Shown: in pieces, positions 8,862-63,966 of the stretch
How positions within the stretch are numbered: position 1 is the first letter of the stretch
How the letters are laid out: each line of letters opens with the position of its first letter
Source of the DNA: Torpedo marmorata
Taxonomy: Eukaryota
Length of the DNA stretch: 64,000 bases
Assembly: GCA_977017645.1 (NCBI GenBank)
Contig: OZ360252.1
Location: 18,414,001 to 18,478,000 of the forward strand
Direction: 5' to 3'
The notes under the pieces: generated by a model
What the model was told of the DNA's origin: nothing
The model's database searches: none
What the model saw: only the letters and a program-made list of their open reading frames with translations
Program-made: the position numbers and the translations under genes

Positions 8862-9176
8862 CTGAGCAGATAACGCCGGCATCGTTGAAGTGGAAAAGTT
8901 CATATAAACTCCACGGTAGCGATGGACAGTCCCGCAGAGCGTTCTCATTCCCGGTGCACTTAACATTCCACGTCACGACGGGTCCAGTCCCCGGTCCAAA
9001 GTGAGAATTGCCCGGGGCTTGCAGCGCGGCGCCGCAGCCCGTCTCCCGACACACCACAGCCGCATCGTCCAGGTCCCAGCCGGTACCTTCCACAGTTCCC
9101 CAGACTCCCTGCTGGTAAACCTCCACTCTCCCTGCGCACGGACTGCCCCCATTCACCAGCCTCAACACGACGCTCT
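8862..9176 (-). CDS. SRCR-domain exon (6 Cys; lacks C2 and C7), probably the first domain of the left gene
   Basis: ttttgtttcag acceptor, gtaatg donor, 315 bp, phase 1/1. Translates as ESVVLRLVNGGSPCAGRVEVYQQGVWGTVEGTGWDLDDAAVVCRETGCG...VKCTGNENALRDC...DAGVICS. Confidence 0.93.
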
Positions 9177-9793
9177 CTGAAACAAAACAGAAACATCAGC
9201 ACCGGGATCGCCAGCGTCTCGTTCCGCGTCTCGGCGCACCGCGCTCCCAGCTCACCGCCGCTCACCCATTCAACGTCCACACATCTTCAACGGAAGGACC
9301 AGTCTGTGGTTACCCCGAATAAACTGCCTAAAGTGGCGAATACATGCAGTCATTTGGTGAACGTCCCAAGTACCGGGAGTAACCCGTTGTTCCAGGGAAC
9401 AAGGCGGCTCCCAGGAAGAGAGGGGCGTGCCCGTTTACACTCCCCGGAGAGCGGCTGATGGGAGAGTCGTGTCGGAGGCCGGTTGTAGCCAGTTCCCATC
9501 GCCATGTAGTGGACCCAACACGTGGTAGTGGTATGAACCTATTCTGGGAACTGAACATCAAAGGACAAAGCGTCGGAGTGGGTCTTCAGCACGGCAAAGG
9601 TGGGGTAAACTGTGGGAGCTCATTTGCAACCCGGAACAAAGTCAACGTGGTCAGTGCACGACACCGCGCCGTTCAGAAACCTGTTTGATTGTCGCCCGCG
9701 TGAATTTAGCGGTCATCTCTCAGCTGCAAATCTTTAGTAACAACCAGTCTCAACAGCCCCACACTAATTACAGTGAAAATTAAATGCCATTAC

Positions 9794-9826
9794 CTGATCG
9801 GTCAGCCAGACAATTCCTGAGGAGGT
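9794..9826 (-). CDS. 33-bp mini-exon, probably the end of the signal peptide of the left SRCR gene
   Basis: ctaat branch site, ttctcattccag acceptor and CAG|gtaatg donor. Phase 1/1 reading xLLRNCLADRS joins in frame to the SRCR exon and is conserved in the other arm. Confidence 0.7.
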
Positions 9827-10759
9827 CTGGAATGAGAAATTCAGAATTAGATTTGGCTCTAGGCCTGTGGGATTTGAATGTGCGAGGGAGGGCTTCATGG
9901 GGAGGCCGGACAACAAACTAATAAACTCAAAGGAAAAAGAACCGACAGCAAACTGAGGGGTCTGTTTGAACACATCGACGGAGAGTCTGTTACAGCAAAT
10001 AATTTAAGATTCACACCTGATTTTCTTTATTAATGAAACTATAATCAATCCTCGGCAACTATTAATTCGCATTGTGCCTTCAATAAGAACGAAAATAGAT
10101 TTGAGATCTGCTGACATCAGGGTAGGACTTTTCCCCGTGAGCTGGATGCCACGACTGATTAGTTTTCTATCTCCAGGAGACACGAGGGTTGCTGATAATG
10201 AATCTTCTGTTGCCACCGTCATGGGACAATTTGCTGCGGCAGCGGGATTTCGGCCCGTGGAGACTATACCAGCCCATTTCGTGGCCGATCAGATGAGGGC
10301 ATCTTCATTCGCTTTTCCCCGTTGATCTGGAAATTTGTTGTAATGCCATTCTATTTATTCCAGTAGAAAGTGCCTTATGCAATCCATGGAGAAGAACTAT
10401 ATCTTTGCTCCCTGCACTGCTTAAGATTGTGGCGCTCATTCTGTCTCGAGCTGCGATTCTCATTTGAATTTTAAATTGCACAGGCAAAGTTCCATATGCC
10501 ACACACGTTCATTTTAATTTGTCAGCTTCCTGCTGTTGAAATCTCCGATATCATGAGCAAGATTATTTCATGGAGAGGTACAGATCGTTCAGCTCAACAC
10601 GCCGATGCGGAACAAGTTGGCAATCTTGGTTGGTGACTTTTGCTGGCAATTCGTAAGCCGTTCCCGTGCATATATCTGTCCAAATGTCTTTTGCACGTGT
10701 AAACTTTGCCCGCTTCTACAGACTATTCAGTCCAGGCACGTCGTTCCAGATAAGGACCA

Positions 10760-11310
10760 TCGTCCGAGTGCAAAGTGTTACCCCTCGGGTCCCTTTTAAA
10801 TCTCAGACTGAACCTCTGCCTCCAGTTGTAGATTCGTCTATCCAGGAATAAAAAGACTGTGAGCATTCACTTTATTCATGCTCGTCATGAACGTGTGAAC
10901 ATCGGTCAGGTCACATCAAGCCTCATATGCTCTGTGAAACAATGCCACAGCGTATTTACCCTCTTACTCTGCCCCTTGCCCTCTTGTCCCGCCACCTTCC
11001 TCGCGACCCTCCTTTGCACCACTTCCAACTTTTTGATGTCCTTCCTGCAAATAAACGACCAGAATTCTCAAATATCACAAACATCTTGTGCAGATGAATC
11101 ATGTGGGCACAACCTTTGTACGTGGACACAGCACCGATGCCTGCCTAACTTCTCTAGCCGCGGCCCTCCAATCAAATCTACTTCCGAACACCAATCTCGA
11201 CTGTCCCATTCCTCCAAACCAATCTTGAATCCAAAGGGCCAGCTCCTCTGGTCTCACGAAATCTAGCCTTCCGGACGAAACTGCAATGCAGGACCTTGTC
11301 AAAGTTCATA
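10760..11310 (-). mobile_element. Old degenerate CR1 LINE fragment (mirrored at ~61520-62070)
   Basis: Remnants of CR1 RT and 3' region (WIQDW...VREVRQASVL resembling VTSGVPQGSVL; gggacccgagggg). Confidence 0.55.
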
Positions 11311-12109
11311 TATACAACAGTACCATCGACAAAATTAACTCCTGATTATTTTTCCAGGTCGGATTAATTCAATGTGGAAACTGTGACGTTAAATTGTATT
11401 TTTAAATTTGCTTGTGCTGAATCCGTGAATAATATTCAAGGATTTGGTCAAATCCTATATTTCTGCAGCGCGGGCTCGTGGGCAGGAAGGGCCTGTTACC
11501 GTGTTGTATCTCTAAATTAATATTCCAACGTTCACACATTGGTTTATTTCTGCCCCGGGTTATCCGGCAACAGTTGGGCATAATTTACTCGCACTCCTGA
11601 GTGCTCTTTCAGACTTTGCTCAGGTAATAGGTGCTCATCGCGAATTGTCATTTTCTTTTATTTGATGAAGTGGGAAATTTTAGTTTTATTTTACAACTTA
11701 AAGGCCTTTGTTCACCTGTTTCCTCCTGTCATGTATACTGATTATATTAGCTCAGAGCGAGTGAACAATAAAATGAGTGAGCACCACACTCTTTATTTTA
11801 GTGTCATATCTCGCTCCAGAATGATATTTACAGGTCAAGCCCATCCCGACATTGGAGAATATATTTTGTCAGGCATGCCTCACGATTCTTCAAATATGTC
11901 AAGCAAGTTAAATCAATATTATTTCACCGCTGCGATTGTTTAACTTTATAATGTTCTATTTCTTTGCTTGTAAAGATTAAAATTAAACCCATCAGCCCCT
12001 TTGCGTCCAGGAAGAGCATGGAGATTTCTTTAATTTTATGGAGATTTTGTTTTATAAAACCATTTGTTTTGCCTCTCAATTATATCCCTTCATTAAACCA
12101 ATCCTCACG

Positions 12110-12400
12110 CATCAACTCCCCCTTGACACTATTCGTGATTCAAATAATCAGTCATTTATGGCAGCCAATTAACCTACCGACGCGAAAGCTATTGGATGTG
12201 GGAGGAATCCACGGTACCCGGAGAAACCCACGGGAATAGCGGGAAAACATTCGAGGTTCACGCAGACAGCGCCGGAGGTTAGAATTGGACCAGGGTCACC
12301 ATAGATTAACTGAGGTCTCAAGCCCGACATAGTGGTTACCCTTCGCTTGTCATGGATGCTGCGTGACCTGCTGAGTTCCTCCAGCACTGTTGTGTATTAC
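12110..12400 (-). mobile_element. tRNA-derived SINE remnant plus Penelope pLTR tail (mirrored at ~58425-58710)
   Basis: gtgggaggaatccacggtacccggagaaacccacg SINE core, followed by gctgcgtgacctgctgagttcctccagcac. Confidence 0.6.
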
Positions 12401-13524
12401 ATTTTCTCCGATAGCTTTACCGGGGCAGCACTAATATAATTGAATGGATGTTTAATATAAGAGGAATGTTCGTCACAGAGAGCTGCAGCCTCACAGGACC
12501 AGAGACCCAGGTGTAATCCTGTGGTCAGTTGCTGCTGTCCGGAGTTTGCACGCGCTCTCTTTGACAGCGCTGGTTCCCCCTCACATCACAAGGACGAGCG
12601 TGATTCCAGGATAATTGGCCAATGTAAATTGTCCTTCCTGAGTGAGTGTGTGGCAAAAACAGTTGACCTGTATGATATTGGGATTAATCGTGAATATGTG
12701 TGACTGCTGTTGGGAGCGGATTCGGTGGGACGACGGTCCTCTTTCCATGCGCTTTGGTTCCACGACTCTCCACATCATTCCCCTGCACTCGGTTTTAGTC
12801 ACTGATGTTTTCATTAAGAAATATCACGTAGTAAACCTGTCATTTAAGGAGCCGCATGATATAATGGCAAATTGCACAAACGAGATCTACATTCAATTCA
12901 AATGATGTAAACTTACAAAAATAATAAAATTTAAATTTGCATGGGAATGTTAGTCTGGGCCTCATTTTGTAAATTGTTCACGGAGATATGTTTTTGTTAC
13001 TGTTTTCGCATTTGAAAAGCTACTTTCATTAAATAGCTATGAAAACACGGTTTTACGATCTAACCGCTTTTAGCATCCAGAGGAAGAAATATACACGGAC
13101 ATAAACAGAGTCAAACACTTTACGTATCACACTGACCCGTCATCTTGACAACAAAATCTTTGCATTTGACAGTGATTGACAAGCCAGAGAACAGCTGAGA
13201 GTTGTCACCAGTGCTTAACAAGGGCACGGAGCAAGTGGAAATACAGTGAAGAAACTCCTGGTAATTTATCAAATCCGGCCGCACATATTACGGAAAACGT
13301 TGGGAAACGGCGAATCGTGTTTGGACAAACGAGCATGCAGCAGGAAATGGCAGAATCGTTCCCTTTCAGACGGTGAGCATTTGCTCTTGATGGAGATTAA
13401 CATATATAACTAGATACTAACTGTCCACGTTGTGAAACTATGCCATGGACCGAGAAGCGCACTCAATATTCATGTCAAGGAAGTGGACGGAGATTAAGAA
13501 ACAAGGTCTCATGTGTGCCTTTAT

Positions 13525-13900
13525 TTAAGATACCAATTGATAAGATGATGAGAGACATTGACCGTGTGGATGGCCAGAGACATATTCACAGGGGTGAAAT
13601 GGCCAATAAGAGGGGGCACAAATTAAAGCTTGGGATAAGTCCAGGGGAGATTCAAGAGGTAGATTTTGTCACGCAGAAACTTCTGGGTGCATTGAATGCG
13701 CAATCGGCAAAGTGCGACGGGACGTACAATAAGATATTTTAGGAAGCTATTAGATAGGTCCATGGAACAGTGAAAAATGAAGGGTGATTCAGTCGGTACC
13801 TTCTCCGCAGCTATTAGATTAGGTTATTAAGTCGGCACAGCACTGTGCATTGAGGTGCTTGTACTGTGCTGTAGATTTCTATGATCTATGTTCTATGATA
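13525..13900 (+). mobile_element. CR1 LINE 3' fragment (mirrored at ~56920-57290)
   Basis: KMMRDIDRVD...RGHKLK coding end, with a ttctatgatctatgttctatg tail. Confidence 0.75.
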
Positions 13901-13982
13901 GAAATCTTCACAAAAGAGAAAAACAAGATCTAAAAACGTAACAGATTAGGCAGCACTTGAGGAAAGAGACACGAAAAAATTA

Positions 13983-14729
13983 GTGGCGCTGCCAGAGCTG
14001 CTGTAACGGCAGCGATGCCGCTGGTGCGGAGCCACGGAGAGCGGTAGCGGAGATACAGCGTTCCCTGTGGGGTCCAACCGCCCAGTCGTACTATTCCGCT
14101 CCGTACAAGCTTTAAACGACGATGGTTTTATATGAAAATCCCGCGACCGCGGGGTCTGGCACAAGATGACGGCGCCTGTGATCGGCAGCAGCCACGAGGG
14201 GTTGCAGACTCCAGGGAAGCGGACACCAGAAAACGGGGAAACCAACCCACGTTTGAGAAGATGAAACAGAGGAGACCACCCATGGGACAGTGACCACGGC
14301 AGCAAACCAGTGAGGAGATCTGAAGCTGAAGAACACACAGGCGGCGGGCTGTTGATGACTCGGGGCGAGGGACATATGCAGGCTGCGGGCTGCTGGTGAC
14401 TGCGGTCGAGGGATTTACACGAGGCAGCGGACTGCTTCAGACTGGCTCGAGACTGGCTGAAGGGGTACCAGGTATCGGAAACGGTGTGCGAGAGTGTGAC
14501 GAGGGCGCCGAAGGTTTCCTCAACGGTCGGACGTTCCGATCTGGAGCTCGGGCTGCGGATGGTTTGGACTGGACTCTGTGTGGCTGCGGGAGCCCTGGAA
14601 GAGAATTCACGGACACTCGGTGTACTGGGGAGACCCATTTGTTTCTCTTTCTCTGAATGTAAGAGGCAGTCTAAAGCAAATTGCATGTAATATTGCACGG
14701 TTTTATAACATGGCATAAAGGAATCTTGA
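13983..14729 (+). mobile_element. GC-rich non-autonomous retroelement, family copy 1
   Basis: Aligns with 45617-46454 and 24662-25269. Head gtggcgctgc, internal aagatgacggcgcc, tail ending gaatcttga. Confidence 0.8.
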
Positions 14730-17700
14730 GTTATCTTTTGTTCTGTTTTTATTTACACAAATGCTGCCCATTCTGTTTAATATTCACTCTGTTTCCCCGT
14801 ACTCAGTTGCCGCTGTCCTGACGAGGGTTTCACTCAAATGTCTGTCCAACGTTTTGCGTTTCAGGTGAAGTTTATGAAAGACACAAAGAATCCAGCCACC
14901 ATTTTTCACTAAATTGACAGAAAACTTCCACCTGAATGCAGCACGTGGAAAGACATTTGGAGCAAAGATCAAAACAACTCTTTTCCACAAAAACACGGGA
15001 AAATGCATTTAGATTAAATAAAACATTTGTCGCTTTTCTCCGGGCACATTAAAGGGAAAACTGAACATTTAATTTGAATCATAATGTCACACGTTTGAGG
15101 AAAACTATTTACAAATTAAACTCCGCCACTCCTTGGAAATGTAATTTCCACCATCCTCCCATATGTGTGTTTAAGATTAATAACGAATTAATGTGAATGT
15201 TAAGTGTTCATTCTCAATCAGGGTCACATTTAATGATGAAATATATAAATCCTTCCCAATAACATGATAGTAAATACAGTTTTTGAACTCCTTCAGTTCA
15301 CTGCATCACACGGTGTGTAGAAAGAGATGTGACCGATAATCATCAGCGTCAGGAATGTGTTCGCCGATTCAGTCAGCAGCAGCTGCAGGTTCGGCTCTCT
15401 TCTCACACGCTGAGTTTACACACTCCGGCCTCTGAATATACTCTTTCCCAGCAATGACTGCCCCTCTTTTTCTTATGAAACAAGGCTAATAATCTTATTC
15501 GAAGATGAGTTCACAAGAGCCGCGGCGTTAATGTGCAGGCGATTTGAAATGACGGAATATATCAGCGTCACCTCTGCAAAATTCCACTCTTCCCAGAAAT
15601 ATTGACGGGAAATTACAATATCACCATCAATGTAATGTAATCCAAATATTTATACTGTCGCCGGCTGAACTGAACACGCGTATAATAACAAACACAACAG
15701 TGTTACCATGGATTGCAAAATAAGCAATACATTTCACTGTCCATTCTCGGTGTCAGGAATTTGAATTAGCTTAACGTTCTCATTATTTCTGCCCTTTTGC
15801 TCTACATATAAGACAACTTAAAGCAACAATTGGATGGCTGAAAAATTCACCGCTGGAGGATCTATTTACCGTGTTAATATACTGAAGAAATTTCACCACA
15901 ATGAAAACACTCAGAGAACAAACAAACGTTTGCTTCCTCTGCTCCTCAATATTCAGTAATTTAACAGTCGATTTAAGCGAAGCTAAATTTTCATTATGAT
16001 CAACATGGCAAATATAAACCGGATTCTATCAATATTCTTAATAAACTCACAGTTCCAGATGAGCACTATCATCAGTATCAAGAGGGACCGAATCATTCTC
16101 CAGGTGGTCAGTTACATTGACGGCGAGAACACTGATCACTTAAGCAGTCTCTCCAAGACTTCTGACATTCCAGTTCATCTGAGACTTAATTCTTTGATAA
16201 CTGCCTTACTTCTTTCTCATGTATTACTCCAACCAATAACCTTTGACTGAAATAATGCGTGAAGTGCAGTCTGCTTGCATGAACCAATGGGAAACAACCT
16301 GGCCATTAATGGAGATAACAGGGTCATCTTTTTTCTTTCCCTTCTCTTGATAAACAAATGACTGGAGTGAGTCTGAACAGAGACACGGACCGAAAACCTG
16401 CATCCAAGAAGCAAACAGTCATCGAGGCGTAGCGAAGTGGCGACGATTATTCGTTCTATTGCAATGAGTGCATTACAGGTTTTCTGCATATTTTGTGTGT
16501 CACCATTTCCCCGTATTACCTCCCTCCCTTACCTACTGCACTTAATAGCAAAGAATCCCCATCGCCCTATTCTCAGCAGCCTCTTTCCAACATCTCACAG
16601 TGCTGAACGTCGCACTTTGTTACAGATTCAAGGGGTTTAAAGAAGAAAACAGCAAAACTCTCTCGTCTATGCTTATCCATCTGAATATCTCGATGGTCCA
16701 TCCATTACCTACTGACTTTCCCATACAGCGTGGCGAATAAAAATAGATGTGAAGTCCCAGGATAAACACAAATACTTCCGCAAAGTTTCTCATTCTTTCG
16801 AGATGGACGGATAATCTCCAGCCCCAGTGATCCTTCCCAGATAAAATATAAATAATTTCCAGAAGGTGGACTTTCTCTCCACCACCGCCCCCCCCCTTTC
16901 ATTTTACCGGCATTGCTATTCCTAATCTGCGCAATGTATTTACTTCATTTACATTCTCCCTGCCTCAATACAGGAAGGTGGTGATAAACTCAGCAGGTCA
17001 CACAGCACCCATAGGAACCAAAGTGTAACCAACCTTTCAGGACTGGGCGCTTCGTCAAGAATGATGATGGATTGCTGTAGATGCTGCGTGACCAGCCGAG
17101 TTTCTCCTGCACATTTGTGTCTTGCACTTGACTCCAGGTTCTGCAGATATTATTTTTCTTTAATTCTGTCAGGCTCACCCTCTCGCTGTCACCCCGGGTT
17201 AGAATTTTTCATGTGCTCAACTTCACTTTTTCCTCATTCTTCTTCCTCGTTTTGATTGAGTGGTGAATTTCTAATGTAATTTCATACATATGATATGGAT
17301 AGGGTCACGGACAAGCGCGGTCAGGAGGTACCTTTTTGCCGGCATACTCAAGTTGGGCCGAATGGCCTGTTTCCACGCTGTCTGACTCTATGACTCTCTT
17401 TGACTCTGAGAAAATATTGCAACATTTCCTGCATTGCTGATAACTGTATCCGGCTGCCAGGATGCAAATTGTCTCCAGTGTGAATGAAGAGTTCAGTGGT
17501 TAGACATTCATGGCACATACAGGTGCTGCTCCTTTTTGCATGCCGTCTATATTTCCTCTTTCTCCATCTTTGAGTTCTGGTCATGGCACGTGGCCCACAC
17601 CATGTTGCCAAGATTACTTCATTTCTCTTTCTGTTTTTTCCACTCCACCATGGTTAGCAAGCTTCCCGACTGTACCTGCACCATTTCCCAATTTTTGGAT

Positions 17701-19230
17701 AAGTCCGGAAGATGCAATTATTTCACTGGAAGCTGTTTGACCATCACTTTCTACAATAAATTAGGGCTGTGTACTGCCTAGTCACTGTGTCAAAGCCACT
17801 CTCTAATTTGCTAATTGCTTTAAAATCAATTCAAAAGGGGATGGGTAGAACTTAACTGAAAATCATTCCAATGAACAAAGATATCAAATTAACATGAAGT
17901 ACATCTGGAATGGTGGAACACACACAGCAGGCCAGGAAGTACTTGATGAGTAAGAAGTGTTGAGGCTTTGCCTTTGGCTTTCCTACTCCGCCACAAAATG
18001 TGATCACTGTGAGTGAATACGAGCTAGTGCTGTGGTAAATGAAAGGGTAACGGGAGCAGAGAACAGAAGTAAGGAAAGTTCACAGATTGTCTAAGCTATA
18101 GAATGGATAGATGAACCATTCTCTGAATATGGGAGCTGTGTTTAGAAGATGAAAGTTATTAATTCACGGTTTCATCACACAACATGTGATCACCCGTCAC
18201 GAAAATAAATGAGAATGATCCGCAGATTATATTGATTTTCTTATAACGGTATAGACTCTCAGGGAAAGAGGGAATAAAACGAGAATGAAAGGGGTATGTT
18301 CTGTAGCTGAACAATATTTGGAAAGAAAAGAAGAGAAGTCATGAAGTTTTGAGAAGGAAATGTAAGAAGGTGCAAACATTTCTGGGAAATATCTCAGCCT
18401 GTTTCCAAGCCATAGTCAACGATAACTCTTCCAAATATAATACCCGTTTCTCCAGTTTAATCAGCAACACTCTTCACCTTTCCACTTTCTAGTCTGATTC
18501 TATTCCATATTTCAGTATAGCAATGGTTTTGTTTTCTCCACACGATGCCAGTAGCCTCAATCAAATCTCTGGATGCTTTTCCCATGGCAATTATGAACAC
18601 AAATTTCAAGTGATGCCTCACCTCCTCTAATCAAAACTTCCATTGCATCAATGATACTTAAGTTGAAACAGAATTGTTGTATTAATTGCATGTAAGAATT
18701 AAAACTATAATTAAATTTCAGTATTACAAGGAGCTAGGTCATAGTAATTAGTTATATACATAGTGTATTGATAAGGATACAAAATCTGATTTATAGCATC
18801 AGAGGTTAACTCAATAAATCTCATCACCTTGGGAAGGCAGGATAATGTTGAATCCTTGCACAGTAGATAAATGTAGAAAGAGAACTAAAAATCATGAAGA
18901 TAATGTTAAATCTAAATGGAATAATGTTTAAGACACACGATTCATCATTTTCTTTTCTGAATTCCACTTTACTGAAGACTGAGATAGGACTGTTAATGTT
19001 TACAATAATGGTACACATGTTGTAGTGATTCAGATATTGGAAACTCTGTCCTCTTGAGGCTGACTCAGAGATTCATTTTTAAAATAATTTTTCATAACTA
19101 CCTCATTTATATTCACCAAGAACAATTTTGTTGAGGTGTGTTTTATTTGATTAACTCCTCATCCGTCCTCAAGCTGCTACGGTCCGAGTATTATTGTGAC
19201 CACACAGATACTGTTTTCAGACACTATTTC

Positions 19231-19697
19231 TTTTCTTTTTAAAATATTTTTATTGACTTTAGCATATAACCATACATACAGAAGAAAAAACAATATTGAC
19301 AAAAAGACTTAAAAAGTCATCTCATATTCATACATATGCAAAGAAAAAAAACGAATGGAACTGCACTAACCAGATATTAAATTCAATTGAAAAATAAGTT
19401 ATGAATATACTATAAATTCATGTTAAAACTCATATTTTACATTTTTAAAATAAAAAGGGTAATACAATATAAAAGAAAAAAAATGAAAACAAAAATAACC
19501 TAAAAACTAAAACTAATCTTCCTCCTCCCTCTATCAAGTTTGCCTTCATACAATAAAATTGAAAGAAAATAGATCGGATAGCGACCTCCAGACATCGGAC
19601 AGAGACTCCTCGGGACATTCCGCGTTATTAATTCTTCCAATAATGATAGTATTCTATGAATGGGCCCCATATATTTAAAAATTGAAAATATCTATCC
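19231..19697 (-). mobile_element. Short 5'-truncated L1 3' end, present only in the left arm
   Basis: Minus strand encodes DRYFQFLNIWGPFIEYYHYWKN* (L1 ORF2 end), then a 3'UTR, aataaa and an A-rich tail. Confidence 0.75.
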
Positions 19698-32737: not shown

Positions 32738-32853
32738 GTGAGGATACAAGACACCCTCAATCATGGTTGCCGTATTCATCACCCTTGGGGCCATCCTCCT
32801 CGCTGAGCTAATGGCGCTGATGACGATAGTGCAGAGAAGGTCGGGGAGATGAG
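32738..32853 (+). pseudogene. Transmembrane exon of an SRCR-receptor pseudogene
   Basis: YKTPSIMVAVFITLGAILLAELMALMTIVQRRSGR* is hydrophobic followed by basic residues. It has an in-frame TGA, a broken donor (ttgagt) and a frame mismatch at the acceptor. Confidence 0.7.
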
Positions 32854-50092: not shown

Positions 50093-50224
50093 CAATGGTG
50101 TTGGTATCACCGTTGACAACCGTCAGCATGAGCGGATCATCAGCACCACTACCCACGCGGAACTGATAGTCTTGGGAATCAATGGTTTTGTTCTCAGCGC
50201 GGTCATAGTCGGCAGGATCCCTAT
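50093..50224 (-). pseudogene. Orphan 132-bp cytoplasmic DYD exon, paralog of 35595-35726
   Basis: ctccaag acceptor, gtgagt donor; RDPADYDRAENKTIDSQDYQFRVGSGADDPLMLTVVNGDTNTI. Confidence 0.7.
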
Positions 50225-50812: not shown

Positions 50813-53800
50813 TGAAAATGATGGTATCGTGATATGCCACAGACACCTTTGCGGAATACCATTCAATGCAACAACACGGCTTACTCATGAAGTGGATGAT
50901 ACTATTTTAGGGAAGAAGCTCTTTCCGGGCATTTAAACCCGTTAAGCACAATTACACTCAATTAAGCAACAACCACATGCGTTTTGGAGTGTGAGACGAA
51001 ACCGGATCACCGGGGAAAACCCACACAAAGTACGGGGAGAACCTGCAAACTCCTACACACAGCTCCGGATGCGAATCCCGGTCGCGAAGCTAAACGTGCC
51101 AATTTGCAGATAATTTTCATCCATTTGATTGTTACGACAGGCCGGCTGAGCAGAAGAAAACATTCGGAAATGCCGGCCATCTCATTTTTTTGAAGAAAAC
51201 CACGTCTAATAATGGAGAAGTGTACACAACCACGTTGCACGTGTGATCACAGACAGAGATGCAAAGATAGTCTGATTATCATGGTCATCCTTCTATCACC
51301 TCTCCAGTTGCTTGAATAGAAGATAAGTTGCAGTTCATTGATGTTGAACAAGTATGATTTGTACAAGAGTGTGAGTGATTCCAACACCTTTCTTAAAATC
51401 TGTGGAAAGACGTGGATTGTTATTTCCAAGCAATTCTGAGTGTGCATGTTCAGACAAAATCCACCACGGTGGCAAAATACAGAATGTCTGAAACAGTGAG
51501 GACAGAATAAACCCGTGTATACTGTAACATCTGACAATGGACAAAGAGCTCAGTCAAAATAGGTGAATGCAGCAATATTATCCAAAATGAAATCGTGTCT
51601 GCAAGCAGTGTCTGTGTGGTCACAATAATACTCGGACCATGGCATCTTGAGGACGAATGAGGAGTTAATGAAATAAACAACACACCAACAAAAGTGTTCT
51701 TAGTGAATATTAATCAGGTAGGTATGAAAAATTATTTTAAAATTAATTTCTGAGTCTGCCTCAAGAGGACAGAGTCTCCAATCTCTCTATTACTACAACA
51801 TGTGTAGCATTATTGTAAACCTTAACTGTTCTATCTCACTCTTCTATAATTTGGAATTCCGAAAAGGCAAATGATGAATCGTGTGTCTTAAAGATTATTC
51901 TATTTAAATTTAACGTTATCTTCATGATTGGGTGATCTCTTTCTAAATTTATCCACTGTGCAAGGATTGAACATTATTCGGCATTCCCAAGGTGATTAGA
52001 TTTAATGAGTTAACCACTGAAGCTATAAATCGGCTTTTGTTTCCTTATAAATACTCTATGTGCTCAATTAATTACTATAACCTAGCTCCAGTTAATACTG
52101 ACATTGAATTATAGTGTTATGTTTTACATGAAATTAATACAACAATTCTGTTTCCGTTTAAGTATCATTGATGCAATGGAATTTGTGGTTAGAGGAGGTG
52201 TGGTATCACTTGAAATTTGTGTTCATAATTGCTGAATTGCTGTGGGAAAAAGCATCCAGAGATTTGATTGAGGCTACTGGCATAGTGTGGAGAAAATAAA
52301 ACCATTGCTATTCTGAAAATTGGAATAGAATCAGACTGGAAAGGGGGAAGATGAAGAGTGGAGCTGATTAAACTGGAGAAATGCGTATTATATTTGGAAG
52401 ATTATCGTTGACAATGGCTTAAAAACAGGCTGAGATATTTCCCAGAAATGTTTGTACCTTCTTACATTTCCCTTCTCAAAACTTCATGACTTCTCCTCTT
52501 TTCTTTCCAAATATTGTTCAGCTGCAGAACATACCCCTTTCATTCTCATTTCATTCCCTCTTTATTTGAGAGGCTATACCGTTCCAAGAAAATCAATATA
52601 ATCTGCGAATCATTCTTATTTATTTTCCTGACGGCTGATCACATGTTGTGTGATGCAACCGTGAATTCAGAACTTTCAGCTTCTAAACACAGCTCCCATA
52701 TTCAGAGAATGGTTCATCTATCCATTCCATAGCTGACACAATCTGTCCTTCTATGAACATTCCTTAACTTCTGTTCTCTGCTCCCGTTACCCTTTCATTT
52801 ACCTCAGCACGAGCTCGTATTCACTCACAGTGATCACATTTCTTGGCGGAGGCAGAACGTCAAAGGCAAAGCCTCAACACTTCTTACTCACCAAGTACTT
52901 CCTGGCCTGCTGTGTGTTTCCACCATTCCAGATGTACTTCATGTTAATTTGTTCTATTCGTACATTGGAATGATTTTCAGTTAAGTTCTATCCATCTCCC
53001 TTTGAATTGATTTTAAAGCAATTAACCAATTAGAGATTGGCGTTGACACAGTGACTAGGCAGGACACAGCCCTAATTTATTTGTGGAAAGTGATGGTCAA
53101 ACAGCTTCCAGTGAAATAATTGCATCTTCGGGACTTATCCAGGCATGTGGAAATGGTGCAGGTACAGTCGGGAAGCCTGTTAATCATGGTGGAGAGTAAA
53201 AAAATCAGAAAGAGAATGGATGTAATCTTGGCAACATGGTGTGGGCCACGTGCCATGACCAGAACTCAAAGATGGAGAAAGAGGAAATATAGACGGCATG
53301 CAAAAAGGAGCAGCACCTGTATGTGCCATGCATGTCTAACCACTGAACTCTTCATTCATTCTGGAGACAATTTGAATCCTGGAAGCCGGATACAGTTATC
53401 AGCAATGCAGGAAATTTTGCAATATTTTCTCCGAGTCAAAGAGAGTCATAGAGTCAGACTGCGTGGAAACAGGCACTTCAGGCCAACTTGAGTATGCCGA
53501 CCAAAACATACCTCCTGACCGCGCTTGGCCCGTGTCCCCATCCATATCACTCACTCAAAACGAGGAGGAAGAATGAAGAAAAAAGTGAGTTTGAGCACAT
53601 GCAAAATTCTAACCGGGGGTGACAGCGAGAGGGTGAGCCTGACAGAATTAAACAAAAATAATATCTGCAGATCCTGCAGTCAAGTGCAAGACATAAATGT
53701 GCAGGAGAAACTCGGCTGGTCACGCAGCATCTACAGCAATCCATCATCATTCTTGACCAAGCGCCCAGTGCGGAAAGGTTGGTTACACTTTGGTTCCTAT

Positions 53801-56074
53801 GGATGCTGGGTGACCTGCTGATCTTCTCGGCACGTTCCTATATTGAGACAGGGAGAATGTAAATAAAGTAAATGCATTGTGCAGGTTCGGAATAGCAATG
53901 CCGGTAAAATAAAAGGGGGGGGGGGTAGAGAAAGTCCACCATCTGGAAATTATTTATATTTTATCACAAATGGGAAGGATCACTGGCGCTGGAATTTATC
54001 CGTCCATCTTGAAAGAATGAGAATTTGCGAAAGTATTTGTGTTTATCCTGGGACTTGACATCTATTTTTATTCGCCACGCTGTATGGTAAAGCCAATAGG
54101 TAATGAATGGGCCATCGAGATATTCAGATGGATAAGCAAAGACGACAGAGTTTTGCTGTTTTCTTCTTTAAACCCCTTGAATCTGTAACAACGTGCGACG
54201 TTCAGAACTGTGAGATGTTGGAAAGAGGCTGAGTAGAACAGGGAGATGGGGATTCTTTGCTATTAAGTGTAATAGGTAAGGGCGGAAGGTAATACGGGGA
54301 AATGGGGTCACAGAATACCCAGAAAACCTGGAATACACTCTTTGCGATAGAACGATTAATCTTCGCCACTACGGTACCTTCGATGACTGTGTGCTTCTTG
54401 GACGCAGGTTTTCGGTCCGTTTCTCTGTTCAGACGCACTTGAGTCATTTGTTACTCAGGAGACGGAGAAGAAAAAAGATGACCCTGTTATCTCCATTAAT
54501 GGGCAGGTTGTTTCTCATTGGTTCATTCAAGCAGACTGCAATTCACGCCTGATTTCAGTCAAAGGTTATTGGTTATTTGTTGGAGTAAGACATGAGATAG
54601 AGGTAAGGCAGTTATCAAAGAATTAAGTTTCAGATGAACTGGAATGTCAGAAGTCTTGGAGAGACTGCTTCAGTGATCAGTGTTCTAGCCGTCACTATAA
54701 CTGACCACCGGGAGAATGCTGCGGTCCCTCTTGATACTGATGATAGTGCTCATCTGGAACTGTGAGTTTATTAAGAATATTGGTAGAATCCGGTTTATAT
54801 TTGCTATGATGATCATAATTATAATTTAGCTTCGTTTCAATCGACTATTGAATTACTGAACATTGAGGAGCAGAGGAAGCAAACGTTTTTTTTTGTCTCT
54901 GAATGTTTTCATTGTGGTGAAATTTCTTCAGTTTATTAACACTGTAAATATATCCTCCAGCGGAGAATATTTCACGCATCCAATTGTTGCTTTAAGTTGT
55001 CTTATACTTAGAGCACAAGGGCAGAAAGAATGAGAAGGTTAAGCTAATTCAAATTCCTGACACCTAGAATGGACAGTGAAATGTATTGCTTATTTTGCAG
55101 TCCATAGTAACACTTACTGTTGTGTTTGTTATTATACGCGTGTTCAGTTCAGTCGGCGACAGTATAAATATTTGGATTACTTTACATTATTGGTGATATT
55201 GTAGTTTCCCGTCAATATTTCTGGGAAGAGTAGAATTTTGCAGAGGTGACGCTGATATATTCCGTCGTTTCAAATCACATTAACCCCGCGGCTCTTGTGA
55301 GCTCATCTTTGAATAAGATTAGCCTTGGGTCATAAGAAATAGAGGGGCAGTCATTGCTGGGAAAGAGTATATTCAGAGGTCGGAGTGTGTAAACTCAGCG
55401 TGTGAGAAGAAATCCGAACCTGCAGCTGCTGCTGACTGAATCGGCGAAAACATTCCTGACGCTGATGATTATCGGTCACATCTGTTTCTACACACCCTGC
55501 GATGCAGTGAAATGAAGGAGTTCAAAAACTGTATTTACTATCATGTTATTGGGAAGGATTTATATATTTCATCATTAAATGTGAGCCTGATTGAGAATGA
55601 AAACTTAACATTCACATTAATTCGTTATTAATCTTAAACACACATATGGGAGGATGGTGGAACTGAAATTTCCAAAGAATGGCGGAGTTTAATTTGTCAT
55701 CATTTTCCTCAAACGTGTGACATTATGATTCAAATTAAATGTTCAGTGTCCCTTTATTGTGCCCGGAGAAAGCGACAATTTTTAAAAATCTATATGCACT
55801 TTCCCGTGTTTGTGCGGAAAAGAGTTGTTTTGAAGCTTTGCTCCAAATGTCTTTCCACGTGCTGCATTCAGGTGGAAGGTTTTCTGTCAATTTAGTGATA
55901 AATGGTGGCTGGATACTTTGTGTCTTTCATAAACTTCACCTGAAACGCAAAACGTTGGATAGACATTTGAGTGAAACCCTCGTCAGGACAGCGGCAACTG
56001 AGGACGGAGAAACAGAGTGAATATTAAACAGAATGGGCAGCATTTGTGTTAATAAAAACAGAACGAAAGATAAC

Positions 56075-56838
56075 TCAAGATTCCTTTATGCCATGTTATA
56101 AAACCGTGCAATATTACATGCAATTTGCTTTAGACTGCCTCTTACAGACAGAGAAAGAGAAGCAAAAGTGTCTCCCCAGATCACCGAGTGTCCGTGGATT
56201 CTCTTCCAGCGCTCCCGCAGCCACACAGAGTCCAGTCCAAACCATCCGCAGCCCGAGCTCCAGATCGGAACGTCCGACCGATCAGGAAACCTTCAGCGGC
56301 CTCGTCACCCTCTCGCATACCGTTTCCGATACCTGGTACCCCTTCAGCCAGTCTCGAGCCAGTCTGCAGCAGTCCGCAGCCTGGTGTGAATCCCTCGACC
56401 GCAGTCACCAGCTGCCCGCAGCCTGCATATGTCCCTCGCCGCGAGTCATCAACAGCCCGCCGTCTGTGTGTTCTTCAGCTTCAGATCTCCTCACTGGTTT
56501 GCCGCCGTGGTCACCGTCCCGTGGGTGGTCTCCTCTACTTCATCTTCTCAAACGTGGGTTGGTCTCCCCCTTTTCTGGTGTCCGCTTCCCTGGAGACTGA
56601 AACCCCTCGTGGCTGCTGCCGATCACAGGCGCCGTCATCTTGGGCCAGACCCCGCGGTCGCGGGATGTTCAAATAAAACCACCGTCGGCTCCATTTACAG
56701 GACGTTTAAAGCTTGTACAGAGCGGAATAGTCAGACTGGGCGCTTGGACCCCACAGGGAACGCTGTATCCCCGCTACCGCTCTCCGCGGCTCCGCACCAG
56801 CGGCAGCGCTGCCGTTACAGCAGCTCTGGCAGCGCCAC
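56075..56838 (-). mobile_element. GC-rich retroelement, duplication mirror of 13983-14729
   Basis: Same flanks as the left-arm copy. Confidence 0.85.
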
Positions 56839-59488
56839 TAATTTTTTCGTGTCTCTTTCCTCAAGTGCTGCCTAATTCGTTGCGTTTTTAGATCTTGTGT
56901 TTCTCTTTTTTGAAGATTTCTATCATAGAACATAGATCATAGAAATCTACAGCACAGTACAAGCACTTCAACTCACAGTGCTGTGCCGACTTAATAACCT
57001 AATGTAATAGCTGCGGAGAATGTTCCGACTGCATCACCCTTCATTTTTCACCGTTCCATGGACCTATCTAATAGATTCCTAAAATATCTTATTGAACGTC
57101 CCTCCCGCACTTTTGCCGATTTCGCATTCAATGCACCCAGAAGTTTCTGCGTGACAAAACCTACATCATGAATCCCCCCTGGACTTATCCCAAGCTTTAA
57201 TTTGTGCCCTCTCTTATTGGCCAATTCACCCCTGCGAATATGTCTGTGACCATCCACACGGTCAATGTCTCTCATCATCTTATCAATTGGTATCTAAGAT
57301 GAAGGAATACATGAGACCTTGTTTCTTAATCTCCGTCCCCTTCCTTAACATGAATATTGAGTGCGCTTCTCGGTCGATGGCACAGTTTCTCAAAGTGGGC
57401 AGTAAATATCTAAATATATATGTTAATCCCCGTCAAGAGCAAATGCTCACCGTCTGAAAGGGTAGGATTCTGCCATTTCCTGCTGCATGCTCGTTTGTCC
57501 AAACACGATTTGCCGTTTCCCAAAGTTTTCCGTAATATGTTCGGCCGCATTTGATGACTTACCAGGAGCTTCTTCACTTTATTTCCACTGGCTCCGTGCC
57601 CAGTGTTTAGCACTGGGGACAATTCTCAGCTGTTCTCTGGCTTGTCAATCGCTGTCAATCGCAAAGATTTTGCTGTCAAGATGACGGGTCAGTCTGATGC
57701 GTAAAGTGTTTGACTCTGTTTATGTCCGTGTATATTTCTTCCTCTGGATGCTAAAAGCGGTTAGATCGTAAAACCGTGTTTTCATAGCTATTTAATGAAA
57801 ATAGCTTTGCAAATGCGAAAACAGTAACACAATCATATCTTCGTGAACAATTTACAAATTGAGGCCCAGACTAACATTCCCATGCAAATTGAAATTATAT
57901 TATTTTTGTAAGTTTACATCATTTGAATTGAATGTAGATCTCGTTTGTGCAATTTGCCATTATATCATGCGGCTCCTTAAATGACGGATTTACTCCGTGA
58001 TATTTCTTAATGAAAACATCAGTGACTAAAACCGAGTGCAGGGGAATGACGTGGAGAGTCGTGGAACCAAAGCGCATGGAAAGAGGACCGTCGTCCCACC
58101 GAATCCGCTCCCAGCAGCAGTCACACATATTCACGATTAATTCCAATATCATACAGGTCAACTGTTTCTGCCGCACACTCACTCAGGAAGGACAATTTAC
58201 ATTGGCCAATTATCCTGGAATCACGCTCGTCCTTGTGATGTGAGGGGGAACCAGCGCTGTCAAAGAGAGCACGTGCAAACTCCGGACAGCAGCAACTGAC
58301 CACAGGATTACACCTGGGTCTCTTGTCCTGTGAGGCTGCAGCTCTCTGTGACGAACATTCCTCTTACATTAAACCTCCATTCAATTATATTAGTGCTGCC
58401 CCGGTAAAGCTATCGGAGAAAATGTAATACACAACAGTGCTGGAGGAACTCAGCAGATCACGCAGCATCCACGGCAAGCGAAGGTTAACCACTGTGTAGG
58501 GCCTGAGACCTCAGTTAAGCTATGGTGACCCTGGTCCAATGCTAACCTCCGGAGCGGTCTGCGCGAACCTCGAAAGTTATACCGCCATTCCCGTGGGTTT
58601 CTCCGGGTACCGTGGATTCCTCCCACATCCAATAGTTTACGCGTCGGTAGGTTAATTGGCTGCCATAAATGACTGATTAGTGAATCACGAAAAGTATCAA
58701 GGGGGAGTTGATGCGTGACGATTTGTTTAATGAAGGGATATAACGTGAGGCAAAATAAATGGTTTTATAAAACAAAATCTCCGTAAAATAAAAGAAATCT
58801 TCATGCTCTGCCTGGACGCAAAGGGGCTGATGGGTTTAATTTTAATCGCTACAAGCAAAGAAATGGAATATTATACAGTTAAACAATCGCAGCGGTGGAA
58901 TAATATTGATTTAACTTGCTTGAAATATTTGAAGAACCGTGAGGCACGCCTGACAAAATATATACTCTAATGTCGGGGTGGGCTTGACCTGTAAATATCA
59001 TTCTGGAGCGAGATATGACTCTAAAATAAAGAGTGTGTTGCTCACTCATTTTATAGTTCACTCGCTCTGAGCTAATATAATCAGTATACATGACAGGAGG
59101 AAAAAGGTGAACAAAGGCCTTTAAGTTGCAAAATAAAATTAAAATTTCCCACTTAATCAAATAAAAGAAAATGACAATTCGCGAGTGAGCACCTATTACC
59201 TGAGCAAAGTCTGAAAGAGTACTCAGGAGTGCGAGCAAATTATGCCCTACTGTTGCCGGATAACCCGGGGCAGAAATAAACCAATGTGTGAACGTTGGAA
59301 TATTAATTTAGAGATACAACACGGTAACAGGCCCTTCCTACCCACGAGCCCGCGCTGCAGAAATACACCCATTTGACCAAATGCTTGAATATTATTCACG
59401 GATTCAGCACAAGCAAAGTTATAAATACAATTTAACGTCACAGTTTCCACATTGAGATAATCCGACGTGGAAAAATAATCAGGAGTTA

Positions 59489-61410
59489 ATTTTTATTTTT
59501 ATTTATATTTTTAAAAAATTATATTTTATTTTAAATTATAAGTCACGAAGTACATAAATTAAAATATAAAATTATCAAAATACATGTGATACATTTTCAC
59601 CCCCCTCCCTCCCTTCTTTCCCTAACACTCCCACCCCACTGTCTCACACCGACTCACCGATGAGGTGCAGCTGAGTCGCACAGTACACTGTACGGCCCAG
59701 CCGACATCCACGCCGAAAGCAAGGGGAGCCCATACTAATCTACTAAAATAATAAAAAAAGAAAGGAAAAGATAAAGTACAGAGAATGTCAATCTAAAAAG
59801 TACATCTATAAACTGATTTTATTGTGGAGGAGAGGTTCGCCAGTCAGATCCGATGTCTAGAGATTCAAATCCTTAAACCAACAGCTTTTATATGTGGGCT
59901 CCATATTTTCAAAAATAAATGGTATTTATTACGTAAATTATAGGTATTTTTATCAAGTGGTATACATGAACGAAGTTCTGCATGCATCTCTCTTACCCAA
60001 ATTCTACATCAGATTTCCAAGTAATAGCAATGCATTTGTAAGAAACAGCTAAAGAAATTCGCAAAAATTCTATTTGATACATATTTAATTTCATATTAAT
60101 ACTAATTATTTTAATATCTCCAAACAAAAATATCATAGGGTCCAATGGAAGTGTAATATTCAATATTTTATCTAAAAAGTTTTTACGTTCAACCAAAACT
60201 CATATATCTTTGGACAAAACCATGTAGAATGTACAAAAGAACCTTCCTCTCTATTACATCTAAAACATAAACCTGATAATGTCGAATTAAATTTCTTTAA
60301 TTTTTTAGGCGTTAAATATAATTGATGAAAAAATTTATAATGAACTAATCTATATCTCACGTTAATAATCTTCGTCATACTTAATTTACATAATTCTTTC
60401 CAATGTTCTTCATCTATTGTTACATTCAAATCTGATTCCCATTTTAATCTTGATTTAGTAATTCCTACTTTAGGGATTTTTCTCTGAAACAATCTATACA
60501 TTTGAGAAATAAAATTATTTACGCCTCCATTAGTAACTAATAATTCTAGTTCACTCTGTCTTGGTAGAATCAAACTATAACCCAACTTCCCAACTAAAAA
60601 TGCTCTAATTTGATAATAAACAAAAAGTGTATTATTCGATACATTAAACATCTTTCATTCTTTGAAAAGTAATTAATTTACTCGCTTCAAAACAATCATT
60701 TATTTTCTTAATTCCCTTTTGGAACCAAATTTTAAATAATTGATTATCAACAGTAAATGGAATAAGTTTATTTTGATATAGAGGCATTTTTAGAGAAATT
60801 GAGCCTTTCCCTCCTATCTCACTATTCACCCTATTCCATATTTCTAACAAATGTTTAAAAATAGGAGAATACTTCCCTTTTATTAGAAGTAATTTAGAAT
60901 TTAATTTATAAATAACTTCTTCTTTCAAATCTTCTCATATATTATTTAATTCTATTCTAATCCAAGCAGAAGACTTAACTAAATCAAACATTCCAATAAC
61001 ATATTTTAATTGAGCTGCTTTACAGTAATTTTGAAAATTATGAAGTTGTAAACCACCTATTTCACAGTTCCAAGTTAATTTCTCTATACTTAATCTTGCC
61101 AACTTTCCTTTCCACAAAAAAAATTCCTAATAATTAAATTTAAATCCTTAAAGAATTTCAAAGGAATTTCGTGAGGAATTGACTGGAAACGATATTGAAT
61201 TCTTGGAAAGATATTCATTTTAATACAGTTTACCCTTCCTATTAAAGTTATAGGTATATCCTTCCAAATTTCTAATTTTTTTTAAATTTTCGTAAATAAT
61301 GGTAGATAATTTAATTTATATAAATTAGCTAATTTTGTATCAATATTTATTCAAAGATATTTAATTCCTTCCTTTGATCATTTGAATCGTGTAATTTTTT
61401 TACATTTACT
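59489..61410 (-). mobile_element. 5'-truncated L1/Tx1 LINE, right-arm specific; same family as 5323-7458
   Basis: ORF fragments 59993-61117 are closely similar to 5704-7199. TSD aaataatcaggagtta at 59473-59488 and 61411-61426; empty site at ~11335. Confidence 0.93.
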
Positions 61411-62999
61411 AAATAATCAGGAGTTAGTTTTGTCGATGGTACTGTTGAGCAAAGAAGTTTTCTTTGGAAAAAGTGACGAAGACTTACAAGTGCAGGGCAG
61501 TGGAAACTGAAAATATGAACTTTGACAAGGTCCTGCATTGCAGTTTCGTCCGGAAGGCTAGATTTCGTGGGATCAGAGGAGTTGGACCTTTGGATTCAAG
61601 ATTGGTTTGGAGGAATGGGACAGTCGAGATTGGTGTTCGGAAGTAGTTTTGATTGGAGGGCCGCGGCTGGAGAAGTTAGACAGGCATCGGTGCTGTGTCC
61701 ACGTTCAAAAGTTGTGTCCACATGATTCAGCTGCACAAGATGTTTGTAAGATTTGAGAATTCTGTTCGTTTATTTGCAGGAAGGACATGAAAATGTTGGA
61801 AGTGGTGCAAAGGAGGGTCGCGAGGAAGATGGCGGGACAAGAGGGAAAGAGGCAGAGTAAGAGGGCAAATACGCTGTGGCATTGTTTCACAGAGCATATG
61901 AGGCTTGATGTGACCTGACCGATGTTCATACGTTCATGACGAGCATGAAAAAAGTGAATGCTCACAGTCTTTTTATCCCTGGATAGACGAATCTACAACT
62001 GGAGGGAGAGGATCAGTCTGATATTTAAAGGGGACCCGAGGGGTAACTCTTTTCACTCGGAAGAAGGTCCTTATCTGCAATGACGTGCCCGGCCTGAATA
62101 GTCTGCAGAAGCGGGCAACGTTTACACATGAAAAAGACAATTGGACAGATATATGCACGGGAACGGCTTAATAATTGCCAGCAAAAGTCACCAACCAAGA
62201 TTGCCAACTTGTTCCACATCGGTGTGTTGAGCTGAACGACCTGTACCTCTCCATGAAATAATCTTGCTCATTATCCCGGAGATTTCAACAGCAGGAAGCT
62301 GACAAATTAACATGAACGTGTGTGGCATATGGAACTTTGCCTGTGCAATTTCAAATTCAAATGAGAATCGCAGCTCGAGACAGAATGAGCGCCACAATCA
62401 TGAGCAGTGTAGGGGGCAAAGAGAACGTTATTCTCCATGGATTGCATCAGTCACTTTCCACTGGAATAAATAGAATGACATTACAAGAGATTTCCAGATC
62501 AACGGGGAAAGGCGATGAAGATGCCCTCATCTGATCGACCACGAAATGGGCTGGTATTGTCTCCACGGGTCGAAAACCCGCAAACGCAGCAAATTGTCCC
62601 ATGACGGTGGCAGCAGCAGATTCATTATCAGCAATCGTCGTGTCTCCTGGAGATAGAATACTAATCAGTCGTGACATTCAGCTCACGGGGAAAAATCCTA
62701 CCCTAATGTCAGCAGATCTGAAATCTATTTTCGTTCTTAATGAAGGCACAATGCGAATTAATAGTTGCCGAGGATTGATCGCAGTTTCATTAATAAAGAA
62801 AAACAGGTGTGAATCTTATATTTTTTGCTGTAACAAATTCTCCGTCGATGTGTTCAAACAGACCCCTCAGTTTGCTATCGATTCTTTTTCCTTTAAGTTT
62901 ATTAATTTGTTGTCCGGCCTCCCCATGAAACCCTCCCTCACACATCCGAATCCCACAAGCCGCCTAGAGCCAAATCTAATTCTGAATTTCTCATTCCAG

Positions 63000-63032
63000 A
63001 CCGCCTCAGGAATTGTCTGGCTGACCGATCAG
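63000..63032 (+). CDS. 33-bp leader-type mini-exon of the right SRCR gene
   Basis: ttctcattccag|ACCGCCTC...GATCAG|gtaatg; reads xRLRNCLADRS. Confidence 0.7.
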
Positions 63033-63651
63033 GTAATGGCATTTAATTATCACTGTGTTTAGTGTGGGGCTGTTGAGACTGGTTGTTACTAAAGATTTGC
63101 AGCTGAGGGATGACCGCTAAATTCACGTGGGCGACAATCAAACAGGTTTCTGAACGGCGCGGTGTCGTGCACTGACCACGTTGACATTGTTCTGGGGTGC
63201 AAATGTGCTCCCACAGTTTACCCCACCTTTGTCGTGCTGAAGACCCACTCCGACGCTTTCTCCTTTGATGTTCAGTTCCCAGAAGAAGTTCATACCACCA
63301 CCACGTGTTGGGTCCACTACATGGCGATGGGAACTCACTACAACCGGCCTCCGACAAGACTCTCCCATCAGCCGCTCTCTGGAGAGTGTAAACGGGCACG
63401 CCCCTCTCGTCCTGGGAGCGGCCTTGTTCCCTGGAAGCACCGGGTGCCTCCCGGTACTTTGGACGTTTACCAAATGACTGCATGTATTCGCCACTTAAGG
63501 CAGTTTATTCGGGGTATACCACAGACTGGCCCTTCGGTTGAAGATGTGTGGACGTTGAATGGGTGAACGGCGGTGAGCTGGGAGCGCGGTGCGCCGAGAC
63601 GCGGAACGAGCCGCTGGCGATCCCGGTGCTGATGTTTCTGTTTTGTTTCAG

Positions 63652-63966
63652 AGAGCGTCGTGTTGAGGCTGGTGAATGGGGGCAGTCCGTGCGCAGGGAG
63701 AGTGGAGGTTTACCACCTGGGAGTCTGGGGAATTGTGGATTCTTACGGCTGGGACCTAGACGATGCGGCTGTGGTGTGTCGGGAGACGGGCTGCGGCGCC
63801 GCGCTGCAAGCCCCGGGCAATTCTCACTTTGGACCGGGGACCGGACCCGACATGACGTGGAGTGTTAAGTGCACCGGGAATGAGACCGCTCTGCGGGACT
63901 GTCCATCGGAACCATGGGATTTTTATAGATCTTACCACGTCTCCGCTGCCGGCGTTATCTGCTCAG
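63652..63966 (+). CDS. SRCR-domain exon (6 Cys) of the right gene; gene continues beyond the window
   Basis: 315 bp, open frame, intact splice sites. Translates as ESVVLRLVNGGSPCAGRVEVYHLGVWGIVDSYGWDLDD...GPDMTWSVKCTGNETALRDCPSEPWDFYRSYHVSAAGVICS. Confidence 0.93.

Follow-up and report, generated by a model that had tools for sequence, protein, structure and literature searches.

Arrays of WC1-type receptor genes, built of SRCR domains, have been described in artiodactyls, chicken and platypus, in an account that leads to an age of ~315 million years (PMC2906472). Cattle carry 13 WC1 genes, whose domain 1 contains two variable regions (PMC3511184), and bovine WC1 is described as binding Leptospira, needing its tyrosines and acting with the gamma-delta T-cell receptor (TCR) (PMC8356672); in cod, a CD163-like gene is reported to mark a TCR gamma/delta cluster (PMC9276791). 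The genes of chicken (at least 18) and platypus (at least 10) are hybrids of WC1 and CD163c-alpha. This study concerns a 64,000-nucleotide stretch of the Torpedo marmorata genome (assembly GCA_977017645.1, contig OZ360252.1, positions 18,414,001 to 18,478,000 of the forward strand; hereafter the window), in which an earlier note, made from the sequence alone, had singled out two SRCR exons, 8862-9176 on the minus strand and 63652-63966 on the plus strand, and had proposed a diversifying WC1-like receptor family. The domain encoded by these exons, d1, is in our judgement probably the outermost SRCR domain of about 54 receptor genes of the CD163c-alpha (SCART)/WC1 type, diversified by selection at its ligand surface, likely for microbe recognition and signalling through a YEEI motif, and likely on lymphocytes.

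The d1 exons were located by a DNA search and two pattern searches of the genome. All 75 lie on one contig (G000:C75) in a 4.9-Mb tandem array at 14.2-19.1 Mb; 74 are intact, and there are 68 distinct proteins. Searches for leader, d4 and tail exons defined 54 units on the minus strand (two of the leaders being implied by an upstream marker), with a median spacing of 79 kb, 51 of them with a matched tail exon, so that the multigene family supposed earlier does exist. Writing a for d1 and n for d4, 36 units read leader-a-n-tail, seven have a-n twice, one has a-n four times and one has six d1 exons before one n; of the remainder, two read a-n-a-a-n, four are without a matched n, two without a matched tail, and one has two tails. 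Five pairs of d1 exons are nucleotide-identical, but the flanks differ in each pair, so these are real recent duplicates. The array is a genuine WC1/SCART-type expansion of unusual size in cartilaginous fish, and apparently an undescribed one: no prior account of such a family in this group, or of selection on WC1, was found in the literature searched, which covered few subscription journals. The kind of system is known; apparently new are its size, its lineage, the site-level selection, the stacked cassettes and the acidic residue in the transmembrane helix.

One unit, gene A, had its exon chain checked in full; it contains the first exon of the pair. Its model comprises 16 exons with AG/GT at every internal junction and an open reading frame of 993 amino acids, 78% identical over 972 amino acids to P0115 of Narcine bancroftii, and it extends ~26 kb beyond the left edge of the window. 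The encoded protein has seven SRCR domains (from the N-terminus a-like, b/c, b/c, n-like, d, e and d'), then a transmembrane helix and a YEEI tail, without a CUB or ZP domain. YEEI is found in 40 of 42 tail exons of the array, the ray AIYEEI aligning with AVYEEL of bovine WC1; the cytoplasmic motif of WC1 and CD163c-alpha after the helix is given as Y-(Q/E)-(D/C/E)-(I/L) (PMC2906472). A glutamate in the middle of the helix (gene A exon L032:3931-4041, minus strand) is present in all 42 exons of the array; 11 of 13 chondrichthyan relatives have an acid at this place and none of five bony-vertebrate ones does, which suggests a membrane partner.

With artiodactyl WC1 the array has in common the tandem multigene organisation, diversity focused in a single-exon N-terminal SRCR domain with six cysteines (P0050), e-d' next to the membrane, an interdomain exon and correlated variable positions. 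It differs from WC1, whose order is a-b-c-d-e-d-b-c-d-e-d' with no n, in a gene number ~4 times that of cattle, in its seven domains including an n-like one, in the transmembrane glutamate, and in a-b-c-n repeats that would give up to four variable domains per unit. The b-c-n-d-e-d' cassette, the domain without Cys2 and Cys7 at n, and a Y-E-E/D-I tail are shared with CD163c-alpha, that is SCART1 and SCART2, described as m-l-b-c-n-d-e-d' (PMC2906472); eutherians, however, have one or two such genes, and no m or l domain was identified in the ray, where one domain, of the a/h-k class, stands ahead of b/c in a comparison without an m or l reference sequence. The nearest described architecture is that of chicken CD163_1 and CD163_8, with an N-terminal a and c-n-d-e-d', while chicken CD163_3 has repeated a-b-c (PMC2906472). 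Relative to the chicken and platypus hybrids, the ray array is larger, its lineage split off far earlier, and selection is quantified at the level of sites. CD163A (M130) and DMBT1 (SALSA) share the group B SRCR fold (template-modelling score, TM-score, 0.94-0.95), whereas the ray proteins lack CUB and ZP domains, the h-i-j-k arm and the YREM tail, and d1 has lost the cation-binding acids that those proteins need. An identity with DMBT1 was ruled out on the presence of helix and tail, the absence of CUB and ZP and the lost cation ligands, and one with CD163A on the absence from gene A of domain k and the YREM tail. Chondrichthyan relatives are named DMBT1-like, M130-like or WC1.1-like in databases by automated annotation.

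The nearest named relatives of d1 are from Narcine (75-78%), then from skates and sharks, in agreement with the cartilaginous-fish host that had been surmised from the letters alone. On domain trees, d1 joins the N-terminal domains of sharks, rays and a chimaera (support 98/95), within a class that contains WC1 a and CD163 h-k (99/99), and the six-cysteine d1 class also occurs in sharks, skates and a chimaera. Domains d2 and d3 group with b/c, d6 with e (95) and d7 with d' (93). Domain d4 forms a clade (99) with domains of turtle, bird, lungfish and ray-finned fish, sits between c and d and lacks Cys2 and Cys7 like n; the label n rests on this position, the cysteine pattern and the shared clade, in trees without a named mammalian SCART sequence. 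Searches for the synteny markers EMG1 and the MHC II beta family gave no genome match, and the controls of the MHC II beta search likewise matched nothing.

Positive selection is strong in d1 and concentrated there. The ratio of nonsynonymous to synonymous nucleotide diversity (piN/piS) was 1.52 in d1 (65 distinct intact sequences, bootstrap P = 0.0035), and the other SRCR exons are under purifying selection, with values of 0.54 in d2, 0.25 in d3, 0.31 in d4, 0.59 in d6 and 0.26 in d7; the values for d2-d4 are biased low, their sets being the 30 best among 65 candidates. The piN of d1, 0.116, exceeds the diversity (pi) of the flanking introns, 0.071 and 0.055, and protein identity is 78-87% across 42 d1 exons against 94-100% across all 63 d4 exons. 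Site models were run on 68 sequences with our own GY94 implementation, in which the topology was fixed, branch lengths were fitted and sites were assigned by naive empirical Bayes. Twice the log-likelihood difference (2dlnL) was 515 for M1a against M2a, 529 for M7 against M8, the check on collected paralogs that the earlier note had proposed, and 499 for M8a against M8, with a positively selected class of omega 7.6-7.8 at 25% of codons. Twenty-four sites exceeded 0.99: 22-24, 27, 29-31, 55, 56, 65, 66, 70, 72, 76, 78, 84, 86, 89, 90, 92-94, 96 and 97. On a tree derived from introns 21 sites pass, 20 of them common to this set, and subsamples of 27 d1 sequences gave a 2dlnL of 247 and 269, compared with 0.7-17.8 in control exons. 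Five neutral simulations with free recombination produced 2dlnL of 17-88 and omega of 2.0-2.8; recombination therefore inflates the test yet cannot explain the observed 515. A test without a tree agrees: pi is above 0.3 at 36 of 208 first and second positions of d1 and at 29 of 868 intron sites (p = 2e-11). The description of d1 as CDR-like (resembling complementarity-determining regions) holds as germline hypervariability only, and nothing points to somatic diversification.

The predicted model of d1 (pLDDT, a predicted local distance score, 92.5 from a diverse alignment) has a TM-score of 0.94 to DMBT1 SRCR8 over 104 columns, and the sequence match likewise spans 104 residues on each side. 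In the published DMBT1 structure, ligand-bridging cations are held by D1019, D1020, E1086, D1058, D1059 and N1081, and a structural cation by D1023, D1026 and two backbone groups; the same report states that this surface also binds ligand in CD6, CD163 and MARCO (PMC7043408). By offset, the site-2 and site-3 ligand residues map to d1 positions 30, 31, 97, 69, 70 and 92, five of which are among the 24 selected sites (p = 0.002), and the variable surface of d1 would therefore be the known ligand face of SRCR domains; clustering of selected sites on one face is what the earlier note had named as support for its claim. The canonical ligand residue is kept at these positions in 26, 0, 2, 0, 1 and 0 of the 68 sequences, respectively, whereas structural site 1 is retained (D34 in 66, D37 in 68 and V71 in 67 of 68). 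Positions 29 and 93 are those of Cys2 and Cys7, with Cys29 present in one of the 68 and Cys93 in none. Since these form a disulfide pair in canonical domains (PMC2906472), variable patches 1 and 3 should be neighbours. Patch 1 (codons 22-31; 9082-9111, minus strand, in gene A) has seven selected sites and holds the Cys2 position and two site-2 positions; patch 2 (codons 65-72; 8959-8982, minus) has four, with the site-3 positions 69-70; and patch 3 (codons 84-97; 8884-8925, minus) has nine, with the Cys7 position and ligand positions 92 and 97. Site variability in d1 correlates with that of eight skate domains at rho 0.59 and with that of 11 WC1 a-type domains at rho 0.41, where one of the 11 is divergent and was included because it passed the motif filter; a Scyliorhinus set (P0042) was left out, as it was empty under the filter. 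Length-variable insertions occur in patch 1 of the d1-type domains of Callorhinchus P0123-P0129, and three ray exons have a one-codon insertion there.

The exon pair of the window fits this family-wide pattern. Both exons are 315 nucleotides long, of phase 1/1, with AG..GT ends and a Pfam SRCR match. Codon comparison reproduced exactly the 19 replaced codons (26 nucleotides) and three silent changes (CTG/CTA, ACT/ACC, CCG/CCA) counted earlier by hand, as well as the four variable patches, including YQQ/YHL, TVEGT/IVDSY and VVTWN/DMTWS (NG86: dN 0.120, dS 0.040). The first mismatch is at nucleotide 65, in line with the identity reported for the first ~60, and the scattered substitutions reported in the flanking introns amount to 132 of 2123 aligned columns (6.2%) in the upstream intron. 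Taken alone the pair is marginal evidence of diversification: replacement differs from silent change at p = 0.042 (Fisher, one-sided) and from the intron at p = 0.006, silent change does not differ from the intron (p = 0.63), and it is the family-wide signal that lies far beyond chance. Sixteen of the 19 replacements sit on family-wide selected sites.

In the mechanism proposed here, each gene would present its own ligand face on the end of a conserved stalk. Loss of the Cys2-Cys7 disulfide and of the calcium bridge would free three co-facial segments for direct, sequence-specific contacts, so that d1 variants may bind microbial surfaces without a calcium bridge, and different genes different surfaces. 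Genes and a-b-c-n cassettes would have multiplied by unequal crossing-over, with the patches reshuffled through gene conversion. Such conversion among d1 copies is likely from the sequences: between-patch distance correlations of 0.19, 0.05 and 0.17 are below the minimum (0.24-0.28) of 30 simulations without recombination, which suggests exchange among paralogs, although no two d1 exons agreed fully in one end patch and differed by more than 15% in the other. Phosphorylated by a Src-family kinase, YEEI would boost the antigen-receptor signal, as in bovine WC1. Pattern recognition and expression on gamma-delta T cells are inferred; a role in lymphocytes is plausible because bovine WC1 acts with the gamma-delta TCR and the cod gene marks a TCR gamma/delta cluster.

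Several observations weigh against this account. Silent diversity is 0.113 at selected codons and 0.047 elsewhere (~2.4-fold, with overlapping intervals); at codons adjoining selected ones it is 0.03, so there is no regional hot spot, but some rate variation is possible. A weaker signal of selection is present in d6 (2dlnL 17.8, three possibly selected sites), and piN/piS lies at 1.0-1.5, the intervals being wide, for the transmembrane, interdomain and first tail exons. The ligand face is placed by alignment to a published structure, not by measured distances. A PHI-type (pairwise homoplasy) test for recombination was not significant in the exon or the introns (p = 0.81-0.95). Broken exons occur among those fetched (d3 1 of 30, d4 1 of 29, d7 2 of 39, stalk 4 of 42, transmembrane 2 of 42), and the functional gene count is consequently below 54. 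As to the name WC1-like, it suits the multigene organisation, the diversity mainly in domain 1, the type of architecture and the tail motif; the order with n is that of a WC1/CD163c-alpha hybrid, a joint clade of d1 and WC1 a is absent from the best tree and not rejected (p of the approximately unbiased test 0.167), and BLAST puts d1 nearer to WC1 d domains (56-58%) than to WC1 a (48%).

High omega on the ligand face would likewise be expected if d1 were bound by a protein of a pathogen or parasite, as an entry receptor or by a blocker, and diversified to evade it, the receptor keeping a fixed host job such as that of a myeloid scavenger; CD163A, of the same family, is described as binding a fixed host ligand on macrophages (PMC2906472). 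Escape of this sort predicts serial replacement, but the diversity is held among dozens of coexisting paralogs; in addition, hardly any d1 domain retains the canonical cation ligands and the tail carries the WC1/SCART motif rather than the YREM of CD163A. We regard escape as improbable. The same low standing is given to a polymorphic self/non-self or cell-contact family, comparable to natural killer cell receptors, that would read host ligands and possibly pair with a membrane chain through the transmembrane glutamate. The constancy of that glutamate in the array and its distribution among relatives are in favour of such a family, as are the calcium-independent binding of a host protein by CD6 through the equivalent SRCR face (PMC7043408) and the linkage of chicken WC1/CD163-like genes to MHC-Y (PMC4988538), but the nearest characterised family, WC1, is reported to bind bacteria (PMC8356672).

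A spurious excess of replacements, created in a decaying array of repeats by gene conversion, by mutation hot spots or by duplication during assembly, is very improbable. Recombination does inflate site tests, identical exon pairs are present and some units are broken; the observed statistic and omega are nevertheless far above those of the neutral simulations, the comparison with introns needs no tree, silent diversity is low beside selected codons, the d1 exons are intact in all but one case, identical ones have different flanks, and the equivalent sites vary in skates and bovids. Microbe recognition by a selected family remains the reading preferred here.

In the window, gene A begins with leader exon L1 (16051-16096, minus strand), which encodes the first part of the signal peptide and was located by tblastn with the N-terminus of Narcine P0115 and a donor scan; L1 is intact at 30 of 30 family loci. 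The end of the signal peptide is encoded by the 33-nucleotide L2 (9794-9826, minus; AG/GT, phase 1-1), followed by the hypervariable six-cysteine d1 (8862-9176, minus) and d2 of the b/c class (150-455, minus), while d3-d7, the interdomain exon, the stalk, the transmembrane exon and four tail exons lie outside the window. A candidate first exon at 16709-16793 (minus) was dropped, since the Narcine comparison places the true leader at 16051-16096. This stretch and its counterpart at 54017-54099 (plus) are conserved ~700 bases upstream of the leader in 45 units and resemble a signal-peptide exon with a donor; they are probably promoter sequence and possibly an alternative first exon. An element resembling a long terminal repeat retrotransposon, with stops (L032:1-3300), has inserted into the gene A intron that follows the first tail exon and is absent at the equivalent place in the neighbouring gene. 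Fragments resembling long interspersed elements, at 5400-7460 and 59500-61420, lie within introns and recur across units.

The second exon of the pair, copy 2, belongs to an inverted duplicate of ~12 kb (51585-64000, plus strand) of the 5' part of a gene, comprising promoter region, L1, L2 and d1, with 91-93% identity to 8828-19234 by self-BLAST; the homology ends ~400 bases past the exon, ~365 bases beyond the right edge of the window. Its L1 (54716-54761, plus), L2 (63000-63032, plus) and orphan d1 (63652-63966, plus) are intact, and a leader frameshift considered at one point (a 2-nucleotide deletion, in one of 45 matches) was dropped, the deletion being in upstream sequence. Copy 2 is the sole plus-strand d1 among the 75, differs from its two nearest paralogs by six nucleotides, all replacements, and is followed by no plus-strand SRCR exon in the 70 kb read downstream that could supply d2-d7. 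On its sequence, it is an inverted 5' fragment unable to encode a full receptor and likely a non-functional pseudogene, at most a sequence donor or a one-domain secreted form. Read-through would yield a predicted single secreted domain with a short extension, and splicing to a degenerate transmembrane remnant 10 kb further a predicted tail-less form, each of which is judged less likely than a pseudogene. The earlier note had held that failure of either copy to be spliced would count against it; this likely applies to copy 2, not to the family. Adjoining the inversion are two orphan exons from the end of the tail in a disrupted gene (49404-50224, minus; exons 50093-50224 and 49404-49543). An older inverted and degenerate copy of transmembrane and tail exons (32743-35726, plus), with a stop, a TT donor and frameshifts, recurs in other intergenic units.

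Other units of the array have features of their own. At G000:C75:17189895-17237562 (L114-L120), one leader is followed by six tandem L2-plus-d1 cassettes ~6.6 kb apart and then by d2, d3 and d4 once each; a frameshift is present in the final cassette, and d2, at 82%, is divergent. The unit could either splice its variable exons alternatively or be a gene in decay. Six tandem d1-like domains are found in Narcine P0011. At G000:C75:17486706-17604473, a single leader and a single tail enclose four a-n repeats, which predicts a receptor with four different variable domains. The d6 exons (L121-L160) are more diverse than those of other inner domains (piN 0.072, piS 0.123). A second cluster, at G000:C42:63.27-64.58 Mb, consists of ~7 genes of the CD163 family; their n-like domain has 55-56% identity to d4, and a further exon of this kind is at C75:2934117-2934371.

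A wider proposal, which we put forward tentatively and think rather unlikely as a whole, is that a germline-diversified repertoire of SRCR co-receptors has stood beside the TCR since the origin of jawed vertebrates, and that in the ray it would combine conversion-shuffled patches, stacked variable domains, alternative cassettes of leader plus d1 (one unit has six) among which splicing selects, a transmembrane glutamate coupling directly to an antigen-receptor or adaptor chain, and the largest array known to us. A ray array with shared plan, tail motif and variable positions means either that the system goes back to the base of jawed vertebrates or that it had two origins on one surface, and it may show how a scavenger fold with a calcium bridge became a sequence-specific variable receptor. 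Database naming as DMBT1-like hides this family, which offers 68 natural variants and 24 mapped sites for binding tests, and a candidate surface marker for T-cell subsets of cartilaginous fish.

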